Of a stretch of 57,290 nucleotides of DNA, positions 2,228-8,676 are shown piece after piece. This stretch comes from Clostridia bacterium. Lineage in GTDB: Bacteria > Bacillota > Dehalobacteriia > Dehalobacteriales > Dehalobacteriaceae. Made by a program: the position numbers and the translations under genes. Numbering within the stretch: position 1 is the stretch's first letter; every line of letters starts with the position of its first letter. Under the pieces are notes generated by a model. The model did no database searches. It worked only from the letters and a program-made list of their open reading frames with translations, and was not told the origin of the DNA. Location of the stretch: the NCBI GenBank assembly GCA_012838175.1, contig DUPU01000107.1, positions 1 through 57,290 of the forward strand. The letters run 5' to 3'.

Positions 2228-2989
2228 TTATGTTCTTCCGTAAATGCAGCAGCCGATAGCCCCGTTAAACTGGGGTTCCGGCGGGACAATAACCTCTACC
2301 CCAAATTCTCTTTCTATAATTCTTTTTATCGCCGGATTAAAAGCCACTCCACCGGTAAAGACTATGGACTCACTTATTAATTGCGTTAACATGGGTTTAA
2401 CCCGGTTCACAATGGTTTGGTTTACCCCGGCAGCCAGTCTTTCCACCGGTATCCCTTCAATAATTTTGCCGATTAGTTCTGATTCTCCGAAAACGGCACA
2501 AGTGGAGGACAACTCTACCGGATCTTCTTCATGCCTGCCCAGTTCTTCCAATGTTATCCCTAAAACCCGGGACATATTCTCCAAAAACCTTCCCGAACTG
2601 GCAGCACATTTATCATTGGTCTGAAAATCCAGCATTCTTCCTTTTACCACTTTCACAATTTTACTGTCCTGACCTCCCAGGTCCATTAAGGTAAAGGTAT
2701 CCAGTCCGGTTTGGTGCAGGGCACCTAAGACATGGGCCTTTATTTCCGGGATTACCAGGCCGCCTTCTACCTTTATGGTTAACCTTCCGTATCCGGTAGA
2801 TACCACCTTTCCCTTTGTTTCCATGTGTAGCTTGTCAAAATCAATGCGTAGTTCGTTGTTCACCAATTGACCGTACTGCCGGTAAAACTCAATGGTATCA
2901 AAGCGACGGAAATTCCATCCCTTTTCATTTTCCCAGGCAATTTTTACATGCCTGCTGCCTAAATCAATTCCCAAGGTCACCTGTTTCAC
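2228..2989 (-). CDS. BadF/BadG/BcrA/BcrD-type ATPase (2-hydroxyacyl-CoA dehydratase activase, HgdC-like)
   Basis: 253 aa. GIDLGSRHVK and DLGGQDSK actin-fold ATPase motifs. Conserved Cys (KCAASSG) for the bridging [4Fe-4S] cluster. 4-nt overlap with the upstream dehydratase-like gene. Confidence 0.85.
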   Translation of the reverse strand: MKQVTLGIDLGSRHVKIAWENEKGWNFRRFDTIEFYRQYGQLVNNELRIDFDKLHMETKGKVVSTGYGRLTIKVEGGLVIPEIKAHVLGALHQTGLDTFTLMDLGGQDSKIVKVVKGRMLDFQTNDKCAASSGRFLENMSRVLGITLEELGRHEEDPVELSSTCAVFGESELIGKIIEGIPVERLAAGVNQTIVNRVKPMLTQLISESIVFTGGVAFNPAIKRIIEREFGVEVIVPPEPQFNGAIGCCIYGRT

Positions 2990-4008
2990 CTCATCATATC
3001 CAGAAATGAATCGATTCTCATTTTACTTCTGGCATCCACCGGTCCGGGCCGGTCCCCTTCCAGACTGAGAATGGGGATTTTTATTTTGTTCCGGAAAATA
3101 ATATCCTCTATCTGACGGAAACAAAAACTCTGGGTATAGTGAATGAGCATATCTATATTTCTTCTTTCAATTTCCCGTTGGACATCCTCTAACCGGTAAA
3201 AAACATGATACGGATATGTATATAAACGGTATTGTTCAATCAGGTCTTCTGTGGAAAAAGGCATGGTAAACTGCCTTTGCACCTCATTGAAAACCACCCG
3301 CCCCCCTCTTTCCTCTAAATAATGATAAATATCGGTAATAATGGGAGGGACCCCGATGAACCCGATTCTAATCTCATTTTCAAAAGGTGTTCTTTCCTGT
3401 ACTTGCTCAATAAATGCCTTTGCTTCTTCCGCAAATACGGTCGGATTCCCATTAAAATCACTGCAACTAACTTGAAAAAGATGGTTTTCCCATCCGCTAA
3501 CCAGGTTTTCCTCATAGGTTAATCGGTCAATTTCCCATACCAATTGACGTACCCGATCCAGATCCTCTTTTGTTTTATTCACTTCACCCCAATTGGTGCC
3601 TAAACGGTCCATCAGCTTTTCTATCTGCAATTTCAGTAAATCCCGGTCCCGATCGAAGGGAAAAGCAAAAGGAATTATTTCAATACCCGCCAATTCCAAA
3701 GTTTCCATTAATGCATGGGTATTGGAACAATCCCCCTGGGTTACCGCAATCACCTTGTTAATCTCCGGTTCCGATAAAACCGTGCCGTAAATCCCTTTGA
3801 TCCACCCGCACAAATTCCGGGGATACCCGGCCAATTCCGCTTTCTCAATATATTTATGGGTTTCCTTACCCGTAATAAATACATTATTTAAATCTACCGG
3901 GATATATCCTCCGGCATAGATTACTTCCACCGGAACGGTAGTTGTCAATCCAATCTTTTCTGCCAAATAAGCCACCCCATCTCTGTCACTTAACTCTAGT
4001 TTCTTCAT
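2986..4008 (-). CDS. 2-hydroxyacyl-CoA dehydratase family protein (HgdB/BcrC D-component-like), single subunit
   Basis: Conserved Cys contexts NLCGWIKG, QGDCSNTH and QSFCFRQ, and overall family-like sequence. The track ORF extends to 4110, but that part overlaps the amidase 3' end. The ATG at 4006-4008 (MKKLELSD) is the more likely start, although no clear SD precedes it. Confidence 0.75.
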   Translation of the reverse strand: MKKLELSDRDGVAYLAEKIGLTTTVPVEVIYAGGYIPVDLNNVFITGKETHKYIEKAELAGYPRNLCGWIKGIYGTVLSEPEINKVIAVTQGDCSNTHALMETLELAGIEIIPFAFPFDRDRDLLKLQIEKLMDRLGTNWGEVNKTKEDLDRVRQLVWEIDRLTYEENLVSGWENHLFQVSCSDFNGNPTVFAEEAKAFIEQVQERTPFENEIRIGFIGVPPIITDIYHYLEERGGRVVFNEVQRQFTMPFSTEDLIEQYRLYTYPYHVFYRLEDVQREIERRNIDMLIHYTQSFCFRQIEDIIFRNKIKIPILSLEGDRPGPVDARSKMRIDSFLDMMR

Positions 4009-4042
4009 TTTATTATAAACAAAATCAGTAGAGAAAAACCGA

Positions 4043-5497
4043 TTATGGATAAAGAAAATTCCAGATTCCTTCCCCGATAGCCTGAGCTGCTTTGAACTGA
4101 AATTGTTCATTAGATAATAATTTTTCCTCTTCCGGGTTGGAGATAAAGGCTATTTCTACCAAAACAGCCGGAACTTGGGCCGTGCGTAAAACAGCAAAGT
4201 TTTCTTCCCTGACACCCAGGTTTCTTCTTCCCAAAGCGGCCAGTAATTTATCCTGCACAGACTGGGCTAAAAGCTTACGTTTCTCTCGTTGCTCCGCCCA
4301 ATCGCTGCCTGTAGGCGCATAAAAATAAGTGCTTGTCCCGCTGATACTACTGCTGACAGATGAATTGGCATGGATACTGACAAAAGCATCCGCCCCGGCT
4401 TCATTTGCCATTTCCCCTCTCTCTTCCAGAGTCAGATACGCCTCTTTTGTCCTGGTCATAATCACCTGAACCCCTTTTTCCGCCAGCCACTTTTCCACCA
4501 ACTGACCGATTTTCAAAACAATCTCGCTTTCATGCTGTCCTCCGGGACCAATGGCACCGGTATCATACCCCCGGGAACTAATGTTTCCGTGTCCCGGATC
4601 AATCACCACGATTTTTTTCCCTTCTTCAATAAACAATTTATCTTTCGGGCACATGACATCAATAATTAGATGACACCCGTCACTGCTTAAGGAGGTTTGA
4701 TAGCTTATTGAGTCATCAAGGTCCACCTGAAATAAGGTACCGATTTCACCTTTTGCCGTGCTGATTTTCTGCACACCGCCATAATTAATATTCTCTACTC
4801 CTAAAGGACTTTGCCAGGGACCTCCGAATTCCAGCATAATTTTAGGATTACCCTCAAATGTTTTTTCCGAAAAACCTAAAGGTTCGCTCCCGCAAACCTT
4901 AATTTGCACACCGGACGGAATTTTTTCCCAACCCCAGCTAATCCCCGGACTTTCCGGTTTCTCCGGTAAAGCCGGAAACTCATTATTGGCTGATGAAGCG
5001 GGTTCAGCGGAAACATCGGTTTTCGGAAGTGCTGTAACCAGCCAGCCCGCTACCCAGCCTTTACCCCCCGGATAAATGACTTGATACCAATCTCCCTCAA
5101 AACCAACAGCTTTAATTCTCGTACCGTTTGGCAGTGAAGACACCTTTGTATAATCAGTGCCGGGACCGGAGCGAATATTAACTACTCTTCCCTGTATCTC
5201 CAATTCTATATAATTCAAGGAAACATAGTCCTTAATTACCCACCCGACAGTCCCATTGCTTAACTTTATTCTATACCAGCCATTTTTTTCTTCTTCCACC
5301 TTAAACTCACGACCCAGTTTAACCTGCCCTATAAGGGGGAAGTTGACACCCGGACCGGACCGGACATTTAAAACCTGGGTATTAACAATGAGCATTTCCT
5401 CACCCCAAACCGGCAAAGGAAAAAACAGAATCAGGAAAGACAAAAAAGACGCCGTTAAAAGGGGAACTATTTTTTGAAGTGATTTTCCGGCAATCAT
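4043..5497 (-). CDS. N-acetylmuramoyl-L-alanine amidase (Amidase_3) with N-terminal signal/TM and two SH3b-like domains
   Basis: C-terminal VVIDPGHGN...SIHANS...RTAQVPAVLVE amidase_3 motifs. Repeated VNVRSGPG/VNIRSGPG SH3b motifs. Start chosen at MIAGKS (5497), which follows GGAGGT. Confidence 0.85.
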   Translation of the reverse strand: MIAGKSLQKIVPLLTASFLSFLILFFPLPVWGEEMLIVNTQVLNVRSGPGVNFPLIGQVKLGREFKVEEEKNGWYRIKLSNGTVGWVIKDYVSLNYIELEIQGRVVNIRSGPGTDYTKVSSLPNGTRIKAVGFEGDWYQVIYPGGKGWVAGWLVTALPKTDVSAEPASSANNEFPALPEKPESPGISWGWEKIPSGVQIKVCGSEPLGFSEKTFEGNPKIMLEFGGPWQSPLGVENINYGGVQKISTAKGEIGTLFQVDLDDSISYQTSLSSDGCHLIIDVMCPKDKLFIEEGKKIVVIDPGHGNISSRGYDTGAIGPGGQHESEIVLKIGQLVEKWLAEKGVQVIMTRTKEAYLTLEERGEMANEAGADAFVSIHANSSVSSSISGTSTYFYAPTGSDWAEQREKRKLLAQSVQDKLLAALGRRNLGVREENFAVLRTAQVPAVLVEIAFISNPEEEKLLSNEQFQFKAAQAIGEGIWNFLYP

Positions 5498-6416: not shown

Positions 6417-6848
6417 TTAAAGGGAATAAACTTCCTCTTCCGGCAAAACTCTAATGTTATTTTTCTGTAAAACCTCGATCGCTTCGTCAATTTTTTCCAC
6501 CCGGAAAATATTCAGCGCTTCATGTCCGGACTGGCCTAAAAAGGCATACAAGTATTCCAGATTTATTTTTTCTTGATCCAAAATATCCAACACTCGGGCC
6601 AATCCTCCCGGTTTATCCGGCATCTCCACGGCAATTACTTCTGTTGTACTTACGGTAAAGTCATGTTCCTTCAACACTTGATAAGCTTGATCCGGTTTAT
6701 CCACAATCAGCCTCAAAATCCCAAAATCCGAGGTATCAGCAATAGAAAGAGCCCGAATATTCACTCCTGCCTTGGCTAACAATCGGGTCACAGCAGCCAA
6801 ACGTCCGCATTTATTCTCCAAAAAAACGGATATTTGCTTTACAGTCAT
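6417..6848 (-). CDS. ACT domain-containing protein (amino-acid-binding regulatory protein)
   Basis: MTVKQISVFLENKCGRLA is a typical tandem-ACT start. The family is usually found downstream of paaK-type ligases. Start set at M23 (6848), preceded by GAAGGAG. Confidence 0.8.
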   Translation of the reverse strand: MTVKQISVFLENKCGRLAAVTRLLAKAGVNIRALSIADTSDFGILRLIVDKPDQAYQVLKEHDFTVSTTEVIAVEMPDKPGGLARVLDILDQEKINLEYLYAFLGQSGHEALNIFRVEKIDEAIEVLQKNNIRVLPEEEVYSL

Positions 6849-6916
6849 ATTTTTCAACTCCTTCAATTTCATTCCTTTTAATTCCATTGTTATCTTTTCC
6901 CCTCCAAAAGTCAATG

Positions 6917-8215
6917 CTAAAGTTTCCGTTTGTCAGTGACCCGTTTGGCCTTCCCTTCACTACGAGGGAGTTTTTTCGGTTCAACCAAGGTTACCTTGCA
7001 AGATAAGCCCAGAACACTTTCTAACTCATGTTTAATTAAATGCTCCAAATGTTCCAATCCTCTCACCTTATCGGAGAACATCTCATCTGATACCTCCACC
7101 TGTACCTCCAAGGTATCCAAATTATTTTTACGATCTACCACCAAATGGTAATTTGGACTGGCATAACCGCTTTCCAGAAGAACACTTTCCACCTGAGAGG
7201 GAAACACATTGACGCCCCGGATAATCAGCATATCATCACTGCGTCCCATGACCCGGGACATTTTCACATAAGTCCGGCCGCAGGAACATTCCTCCAAATG
7301 CAAGGAGGATAGGTCCCTGGTACGATACCGAATAACAGGAAAACCTTCTTTGGTAATGGTGGTGAATACCAATTCACCTACTTCCCCGTAAGGAAGAACT
7401 TCCCCAGTTTCCGGATTAATAATCTCAGGAATAAAATGATCTTCAAAAACGTGCAGACCGTTTTTCTCGCAGCATTCCATGGCTACCCCAGGACCCATGA
7501 CCTCACTTAAACCGTAAATATCATGAGCGCTTAACCCTAATCTGTCTTCAATCTCTTTTCTCATAGCCTGAGTCCAGGGTTCCGCCCCAAAGATCCCGGC
7601 CTTAAGCTTTATCTCATCTTTTTTTATCCCCAGCTCTTCCATGGTTTCCGCAATAACCAGGGCATAGGAGGGAGTACAGGCCAATGCCGTACTGCCAAAG
7701 TCTTTCATTACCATCACCTGTCTTTTGTTGTTCCCCCCGGAGGTTGGAACAACACAGGCTCCTATCCTTTCCGCCCCATTATGGATGCCTAAGCCGCCGG
7801 TAAATAAACCGTAACCGTAGGAAATCTGGATCACGTCCTGTTTTGTAATCCCAGCAAAGCCTAGAGACCGGGCGGCAAGCTCCGCCCAATTATTCAAATC
7901 CTGGCGGGTATAACCCACCACGATCGGCTTTCCGGTTGTGCCGGAAGATGAATGAATCCGCACAATTTCGCTTAAGGGAGCGGCAAATAAACTATAAGGA
8001 TAGTTGTCTCTTAAATCCGTTTTTACGGTAAAGGGAAGATGGGCTAAATCTTCCAGGGATTGAATGTCATCCGGCTCCACTCCCTTTTCCTGCATAGCCT
8101 TACGGTAATGTGGAACATTATAATATACTCTTTCCACTGTTTGTTTTAAACGTTCCAGTTTTAACTCTTCCAACTCTTCCCGAGGCATACATTCATACTT
8201 CTCATTCCAATACAT
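6917..8215 (-). CDS. paaK: Phenylacetate-CoA ligase (PaaK family aryl-acid adenylating enzyme)
   Basis: [16 protein letters not shown]...[11 protein letters not shown]-binding motif. Length is about 432 aa from the ATG at 8213-8215. The longer track ORF (to 8344) runs into the T-box terminator and is an artefact. Confidence 0.9.
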
Positions 8216-8273
8216 TTTAATCACCCCATGTCCAGTTTTATATTTTTTATATATTTTTATATATTGGTATAAT

Positions 8274-8625
8274 AAAAAAAGCACTTCACGTCTTAAGGGA
8301 CGGAAAGTGCACCGCGGTACCACCCAAATTGGTTTGAAACCCACTCATAAGGTACGGGGTAAGATTCTGTTAAGATAAACAAAAAGCTTTTTGTCTAAGG
8401 ACAAAAAGCACCACCTTAAATCACAAAAGTACAGGGCATCATTACCCGATACCTGTCTTCGCTAACGGGAATACCCGGCACAGGCTACTGCCTTAAGAGA
8501 AAACTCCAAGGGTTCACCCTGCAGTTCAAGAGTGAATTTCTGTTAACTTAACTTTGAAATGCTCTCAGTCTCCGGCATTTCTTCCCTGGAAAAGCATCCG
8601 TTAACATACTTGTCTCTGTCATTAC
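8274..8625 (-). promoter_or_regulatory. T-box riboswitch leader (probable Phe, UUC specifier) with terminator/antiterminator
   Basis: On the minus strand, stem I starts with AGAGA..AGTA (about 8607-8620). The specifier loop reads AGAAATTCA (TTC at 8534-8536, followed by A). The T-box sequence AATTTGGGTGGTACCGCG lies at 8313-8330. The terminator GCACTTTCCGTCCCTTAAGACGTGAAGTGC plus T7 lies at 8274-8310. Confidence 0.85.
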
Positions 8626-8647
8626 TTTTGCCTATAAAATTAGTAAT

Positions 8648-8676
8648 AGTTTAGCATAAAGAATTATCCTTGGCAA
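8648..8676 (-). promoter_or_regulatory. Sigma-A type promoter of the T-box/paaK operon
   Basis: The minus strand reads TTGCCA-N17-TAAACT, with a TG two nt upstream of the -10 (extended -10). Confidence 0.5.

Follow-up and report, generated by a model that had tools for sequence, protein, structure and literature searches.

The paaK-ACT operon and its T-box leader

The window analysed here is a 57,290-nt stretch (positions 1–57,290 of GenBank contig DUPU01000107.1) from the 2.4-Mb, 232-contig assembly GCA_012838175.1 (genome G000 below) of a Clostridia bacterium assigned to the Dehalobacteriaceae. Its minus strand carries a two-gene operon, paaK-ACT, consisting of a gene for an aryl-acetate-coenzyme A (CoA) ligase of the PaaK family and, 68 nt after it, a gene for an ACT-pair protein, preceded by a leader RNA of the T-box type (Table 1). 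A preliminary description of this locus had proposed a T-box with a probable Phe (UUC) specifier controlling a phenylacetate-CoA ligase and an ACT protein, and had suggested a scan with the Rfam covariance model RF00230 as a check. A cmscan run over the whole window returned one T-box leader, complete (model positions 1–219; 8631–8293, minus strand); its score of 95.6 bits lies barely over the gathering score of 93 because of an insertion of ~110 nt. All motifs named in that description (Stem I base, AGUA, specifier loop, T-box sequence, UGGU, terminator and U7 tract) are present, and profile matches to both proteins agree with the gene content it gave.

The T-box sequence, AAUUUGGGUGGUACCGCGG (8330–8312), has its UGGU at 8322–8319. 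The 5′ arm of terminator T2 overlaps the 3′ half of the antiterminator, CCGUCCC being common to both; the two structures are mutually exclusive, and the U7 tract of T2 ends 59 nt ahead of the paaK ATG. A putative promoter, placed by consensus scan, matches the consensus at 9 of 12 positions and has TG ahead of the −10 element. The leader RNA is an ordinary member of RF00230, and the unusual part is the operon that it regulates.

The ligase is filed here as PaaK-family (PF14535 and PF00501) because its score with TIGR02155 (599.6 bits) is under the equivalog cut-off of 646.3. It is a full-length homologue of two Burkholderia cenocepacia PaaK enzymes of aerobic catabolism (PDB 2Y4O, 462 bits; 2Y27, 461 bits) and of 4R1L (439 bits), which we take to be the PaaK of Bacteroides thetaiotaomicron. 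The ACT-pair protein matches ACT_8 (PF19571) over profile positions 1–138 of 141 (112.6 bits against 23.5) and is homologous along its full length to PDB 2F06 (E 1e-34), a ‘conserved hypothetical protein’ with no assigned function.

Table 1 Features of the paaK-ACT operon and its leader in the window, and T-box leaders of related function at other loci.
Feature	Position	Strand	Evidence
Promoter-like site: −35 TTGCCA (8676–8671), 17-nt spacer, TG-extended −10 TAAACT (8653–8648)	8648..8676	-	consensus scan
T-box leader (RF00230)	8293..8631	-	cmscan, model 1–219, 95.6 bits, E 9e-20, ~110-nt insertion
Stem I: GA/kink-turn (K-turn) motif, basal helix, S-turn, upper helix, distal platform	8524..8623	-	cmscan alignment; minimum free energy (MFE) fold
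Specifier codon UUC (8536–8534) and trailing purine A (8533)	8533..8536	-	same-genome register; UUC invariant in relatives
Stem II (8521–8479); Stem IIA/B with F-box CCGUUA (8478–8463)	8463..8521	-	cmscan, model positions 105–148
Hairpin X:Y1: X GGUAUCGGG (8453–8445) with Y1 CCCUGUAC (8436–8429)	8429..8453	-	pairing in nine leaders
First, reduced discriminator module: UAAGG-UGGU (8418–8410), hairpin T1 (8409–8386), U-rich tail UUUUUGUUU (8385–8377)	8377..8418	-	terminator scan; fold
Y2 CCCCGUACC, repeat of the Y strand of hairpin X:Y1, immediately ahead of the second module	8351..8359	-	pairing in nine leaders
Short Stem III (8341–8331), T-box sequence (8330–8312), canonical antiterminator (8325–8297), UGGU bulge (8322–8319)	8297..8341	-	cmscan alignment
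Terminator T2 (8310–8281) and U7 (8280–8274)	8274..8310	-	fold −13.4 kcal/mol, z −5.3
paaK, PaaK-family aryl-acetate-CoA ligase, 432 aa; ribosome-binding site (RBS) GGGGUGA (8227–8221)	6917..8215	-	PF14535, PF00501, TIGR02155, PDB homology
ACT-pair protein, 143 aa, own RBS AAGGAG	6417..6848	-	PF19571 ACT_8 112.6 bits; PDB 2F06 E 1e-34
pheS-pheT UUC T-box leader	G000 C31:4825-5075
aroF-pheA UUC T-box leader	G000 C203:11741-12004
Trp (UGG) T-boxes upstream of iorA-iorB-paaK (relatives)	L129 493-735; L134 496-751; L135 340-118; L126 365-122; L133 358-618

Stem I and the specifier codon

In Stem I, the basal helix is formed by AGAG (8617–8614) with CUCU (8532–8529), followed by the S-turn AGUA (8610–8607), an upper helix (UGUUAAC/GUUAACA) and a variant distal platform (CAGGGA...GACUGAGAG); both helices and the internal specifier loop also come out of an independent MFE fold of 8623–8524. 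On its 3′ side the loop has the sequence GAA-A-UUC-A (8540–8533), so that Stem I shows the GA/K-turn base, the AGUA...GAA S-turn, and a codon plus trailing purine beside the basal helix.

The specifier register was defined as the three bases ahead of the last unpaired base adjoining the basal helix, and was applied to all T-boxes of G000 (16 full and one partial). Leaving aside paaK and the two other UUC leaders, it picks the right codon in 12 of 13 cases: leuS CUC, thrS ACC, tyrS UAC, valS GUC, serA UCC, ileS AUC, trpB-like UGG, metG AUG, glyQ GGC, ilvE CUC, cysE UGC and hisS(-aspS) GAC. The sole T-box target without a family match is the gene behind a GCC (Ala) T-box. In the register calibrated in this way the paaK leader reads UUC. 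The single tRNA-Phe of G000 (contig C88) has the anticodon GAA and a 3′ end of A73-CCA, and this ACCA is complementary to the UGGU bulge of the antiterminator, as the preliminary description had expected from a discriminator A.

That description had named AUU (Ile) as the alternative codon. AUU can be read one base upstream, where the loop sequence is GAAAUUCA, and a tRNA-Ile would probably carry A73 as well; the tRNA search of the G000 assembly returned no tRNA-Ile. However, the register of a codon plus one trailing base is right for 12 of the 13 other T-boxes, the ileS T-box of the same genome uses AUC, and UUC is constant in the relatives' paaK leaders, which have A, G or no spacer at all immediately 5′ to it. 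AUU was rejected because of this pattern together with the register, and it is extremely improbable that the operon answers to Ile or to any amino acid other than Phe. From its register and its invariance the specifier is read as UUC (Phe), as first proposed.

Conservation of the leader and operon in relatives

The comparison covered 61 related genomes, in which the 30 best-matching paaK loci were examined. The named genomes that come nearest are that of Candidatus Formimonas warabiya DCMF, with 84% identity in PaaK, and a Dehalobacterium metagenome-assembled genome (MAG), with 82%. An ACT gene follows paaK in 29 of the 30 loci, and the remaining locus ends at a contig edge. A clear T-box lies directly upstream of paaK in 19 loci, 16 of them identified by cmscan (79–131 bits, full model) and three by motif and specifier alone, and one more locus has a weak match (46 bits). 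The specifier is UUC in every clear case (19/19). By GTDB family, the T-box is present in 8/8 loci of family f1, 8/12 of f3 and 3/3 of f6. Outside the 30 loci, a UUC T-box was also found at two MAG paaK loci, one from Thermoanaerobacteraceae (cmscan, 105 bits) and one from Thermovenabulum (read from sequence). For the second-tier paaK-iorA and paaK-ACT paralogues of the relatives, a motif search gave no upstream T-box.

At two loci (L025 1501-2794, from genome G006, and L064 6001-7294, from the Dehalobacterium MAG) the paaK orthologue is split between two frames that meet near codon 62, which is a frameshift or an assembly error. The leader of this split paaK is without the first discriminator module described below.

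An additional upstream module within the leader

The ~110-nt insertion lies between the F-box and Stem III and is kept in seven of eight same-family leaders and in two leaders of family f6. It contains a second, upstream terminator-like hairpin that is absent from the preliminary description. Strand X can pair with either of two copies of its partner strand, Y1 and Y2. Across these nine leaders 95.8% of cells are paired for X:Y1 and likewise for X:Y2; both partners have changed at one base pair of X:Y1 and at two of X:Y2, and slid controls do not exceed 70% and 58%, respectively. Coming from nine related sequences, these figures are consistent with the helix model but short of proof of it.

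Between Y1 and Y2 lies a first, reduced discriminator module. Its motif [A/G]AGGUGGU is invariant (UAAGGUGGU, 8418–8410 in the paaK leader) and is followed immediately by hairpin T1 (10 bp, −11.2 kcal/mol, z −5.5), which was called by the terminator scan and whose arm sequences differ by lineage with complementarity kept. UAAGG is able to pair with CCUUA at the T1 apex (100% paired in the nine leaders, with one A-U to G-C change), a pairing that appears sterically incompatible with the T1 hairpin. The leader thus has one Stem I, two terminators with U-tracts and two GGUGGU motifs kept in the nine leaders. Its first module has no A2 helix, and the Rfam T-box model gave no partial match to it in cmscan, the only hits being weak ones to terminator regions of other leaders.

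The aroF-pheA leader of G000 is the paralogue nearest to the paaK leader (58% identity; sisters in the tree, support 0.895) and shares the X/Y1/Y2 layout and the double discriminator. In that leader region (C203:11741-12116; L015 1501-1900) one Stem I (UUC) is followed by two complete antiterminator/terminator modules, each with a copy of CCCGUAC ahead of it that is able to pair with one GGUAUCGGA strand. Both leaders therefore combine one Stem I with two discriminators, but in the paaK leader the first is reduced to UAAGG-UGGU...CCUUA and has no A2 helix. Because this paralogue combines that X/Y1/Y2 layout with two discriminators that are both canonical, we suggest that the paaK leader may be described as a ‘one-and-a-half’ T-box, its first checkpoint stripped to a minimal antiterminator, with gating by tRNA as a proposal.

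T-boxes with one specifier arm and two terminator/antiterminator modules were reportedly termed ‘partially double’ by Vitreschak et al. in 2008. The paaK leader is like these in its single Stem I, its two successive terminators with U-tracts and the duplicated Y1/Y2 able to pair with X; unlike them, it has an upstream module that is degenerate and undetected by the Rfam T-box model.

In the proposed switch, the first terminator would be guarded by the minimal UAAGG-UGGU...CCUUA antiterminator alone, and the two copies of strand Y (Y1 and Y2) could serve to bring the second, canonical discriminator back to the one arm that binds tRNA. A tRNA bound to Stem I would then be read first by the A2-less antiterminator, after which a swap from X:Y1 to X:Y2 would hand it over to the canonical one.

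Alternatively, the hairpin and U-tract at 8409–8377 may not be gated by tRNA, being either a decayed duplicate discriminator that now acts as a constitutive attenuator or pause site, or part of a Phe-codon-rich leader open reading frame (ORF) behind the AAGGUGG motif. This would fit the missing A2 helix and the cmscan result, and AAGGUGG does resemble a Shine-Dalgarno sequence, with short ORFs containing UUU codons readable through the hairpin when the leaders are read by eye. On the other hand, [A/G]AGGUGGU and CCUU/CUUC are kept in all nine leaders, across two GTDB families, while flanks and arms change with compensation, and the aroF-pheA leader has two canonical discriminators in the same layout. 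The candidate start codons and frames of a leader ORF are not conserved among relatives, and a leader peptide is for that reason unlikely. Overall, an ungated first hairpin is a serious possibility, though one to which we give somewhat less than an even chance.

The Phe regulon and genes for a proposed salvage pathway

The other two UUC T-boxes of G000 precede pheS-pheT and aroF-pheA (3-deoxy-D-arabino-heptulosonate 7-phosphate (DAHP) synthase and prephenate dehydratase). Their leaders and the paaK leader belong to the same RF00230 family and share the UUC specifier, the UGGU match and a variant distal platform in Stem I, but their targets are a synthetase or shikimate/prephenate enzymes rather than an aryl-acid CoA ligase with an ACT protein.

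Use of the ligase for Phe synthesis from phenylacetate would require IorA and IorB, the indolepyruvate/arylpyruvate:ferredoxin oxidoreductase (IOR), and the preliminary description had called for a search for their genes. Both were found on contig C152 of G000, the same genome as PaaK, above their cut-offs (iorA, 762 bits against 650.9; iorB, 275 bits against 230). Over the 61 genomes the occurrence of PaaK goes with that of IorA, and one genus, with 11 genomes, lacks the two throughout; because these 11 genomes are related, the joint loss amounts to about one event. An aminotransferase to finish Phe is implied by the presence of pheA.

Paralogues of PaaK occur in the contexts paaK-ACT, paaK-iorA and iorA-iorB-paaK, and in other phyla as joined iorA-iorB-paaK-ACT operons. 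In five of the 11 relatives with the upstream region fetched, a T-box lies directly upstream of iorA-iorB-paaK (Table 1) and reads, in the same register, UGG (Trp); so the codon of the T-box changes with the aromatic amino acid to which the aryl acid should lead. The PaaK paralogue of these operons is 40–48% identical to the window PaaK, and the UGG specifiers would imply salvage of indoleacetate under the control of tRNA-Trp. G000 itself has a second PaaK paralogue (C146), with an MttB-family gene on one side and a methyl-accepting chemotaxis protein (MCP) gene on the other, and no T-box was found for it in this genome. The MttB-family gene adjoining it encodes a methyltransferase, and tRNA-Pyl(CTA) and tRNA-Sec(TCA) are present elsewhere in G000.

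Proposed role of the operon

The RNA anatomy, specifier, regulon, conservation and gene content are shown by the data above, and from them we infer a tRNA response, a substrate for the enzyme, a direction for the pathway, a role for the ACT protein and a way in which the two checkpoints would operate. It is probable that the leader is a class-I transcriptional T-box through which tRNA-Phe gates the paaK-ACT operon, the likeliest role of which is Phe salvage from phenylacetate. Uncharged tRNA-Phe(GAA) would pair through its anticodon with UUC in the specifier loop of Stem I and through its free ACCA end with the UGGU of the antiterminator, blocking the terminator and allowing transcription of paaK-ACT. 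PaaK would then convert phenylacetate, environmental or self-made, to phenylacetyl-CoA; from this IorAB could make phenylpyruvate by reductive carboxylation, and Phe would be formed by the aminotransferase that also completes de novo synthesis. For the ACT protein a role as amino-acid (Phe) sensor is probable, and it may tune the ligase post-translationally. This anabolic direction is well supported by regulatory logic, that is, by the composition of the regulon, the presence of iorAB and the Trp T-boxes on the paralogous iorAB-paaK operon.

The wider proposal that joins the two-checkpoint switch to a T-box-labelled family of aryl-acid salvage operons in anaerobic Bacillota, with Phe T-boxes on paaK-ACT and Trp T-boxes on iorAB-paaK, is tentative, and we regard it as doubtful in its joint form.

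Phenylacetate-dependent Phe synthesis in rumen bacteria was reportedly described by Allison in 1965. In Methanococcus maripaludis, aryl acids feed aromatic amino-acid synthesis via IOR (Porat et al., as cited in PMC4162585). The chemistry in both cases is the same as that proposed here, from aryl acetate through aryl-acetyl-CoA and arylpyruvate to the amino acid; the evidence there comes from physiology and genetics, with no riboswitch, whereas here it is regulatory and genomic alone.

Several observations weigh against Phe salvage as the role of the operon. In a second cluster in G000 (C20:418-3762; L081) an iorA-like gene that scores 598 bits, under the cut-off, lies in a row with an iorB-like gene and one for an ADP-forming acyl-CoA synthetase. 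The cluster looks catabolic, being organised as an ATP-yielding fermentation of arylpyruvate would lead one to expect, opposite in direction to salvage, so that the organism may also run the route degradatively. The cmscan of the genome gave no T-box at either iorAB locus, and no phenylacetate transporter was identified. Phenylacetate as the substrate is suggested by the Phe T-box, and the score of the ligase with TIGR02155 is below the cut-off. Control by T-box is not universal, with none on paaK-ACT in families f2 (0/5) and f4 (0/1) among the 30 loci, and none at five paaK loci from Oscillospiraceae, other Clostridia and Thermodesulfobacteriota. A PaaK-ACT fusion was seen as one singleton among 11 hits (P0005; 580 aa, from one metagenome contig, with PF00501, PF14535 and an ACT_8 pair), which may be a true fusion or an artefact of gene prediction; a lone case does not really argue that PaaK and ACT interact physically, and fusions were dropped as evidence of interaction.

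Under a genuine T-box the ligase might still work in catabolism, in detoxification or in making a CoA-thioester signal, in line with the usual annotation of paaK as a gene of phenylacetate degradation. Bit scores place PaaK about equally near the catabolic enzymes of B. cenocepacia (462 bits) and that of Bacteroides (439 bits), G000 has the catabolic-looking cluster of iorAB-like genes and an ADP-forming synthetase, and a gene resembling 2-hydroxyacyl-CoA dehydratase lies with its activase 2.3 kb downstream of the operon. However, induction by uncharged tRNA-Phe would make no sense for degrading a product derived from Phe, the other Phe T-boxes of G000 precede charging and synthesis genes, and the paralogous iorAB-paaK operons have Trp T-boxes. 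No paa ring-oxidation or pad genes adjoin paaK, and sporulation genes lie between the dehydratase-like genes and the operon. A catabolic, detoxifying or signalling role is on these grounds improbable, and Phe salvage is preferred.

Other features of the window

Upstream of the paaK-ACT operon, spoVR, yhbH and prkA form a sporulation operon on the same strand that is unrelated to it. Downstream of ACT, at 2228–4110 (minus strand), a single gene for an HgdB-like 2-hydroxyacyl-CoA dehydratase D-component overlaps a gene for an activase of the BcrAD/BadFG family; this pair is 2.3 kb from ACT, with genes for an SH3-amidase (CwlD-like catalytic domain) and a Germane-domain protein between. Elsewhere on the minus strand of the window are a thiamine pyrophosphate (TPP) riboswitch (RF00059; 38505–38610; 65.1 bits against a gathering score of 54.3) and a cluster of tRNA-His(GTG), tRNA-Arg(TCT) and tRNA-Gly(TCC) genes (15–392).

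Relation to known T-box regulons and significance

A literature search found no paper linking T-boxes with paaK, phenylacetate-CoA ligase, phenylacetyl-CoA or indolepyruvate, although Vitreschak 2008 and Gutierrez-Preciado 2009 fell outside its coverage and may hold a prior mention. The sole paper found with both T-box and phenylacetate is about T-box inhibitors and is unrelated by title, and the supplements of two T-box regulon surveys have no entry for paaK or phenylacetate.

A T-box regulon is usually taken as a catalogue of the genes for restoring charged tRNA. With paaK-ACT in the Phe regulon and iorAB-paaK of relatives in the Trp regulon, such regulons provide regulatory evidence on the direction of a pathway, suggesting that these anaerobes run the IOR/PaaK route toward amino-acid synthesis, and they give a gene-level handle on the old physiology of anaerobes that make Phe from phenylacetate. 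The leader is a compact natural example of a stripped first checkpoint and bears on how T-boxes with a single arm and a double terminator function; if the two-checkpoint view is true, it would check twice in succession whether the tRNA is charged. The orphan ACT_8 family (PDB 2F06) gains a testable role. These findings argue for re-annotating many ‘catabolic’ paaK genes and, if the salvage family proposed here is real, many ‘phenylacetate degradation’ ligases would be biosynthetic.

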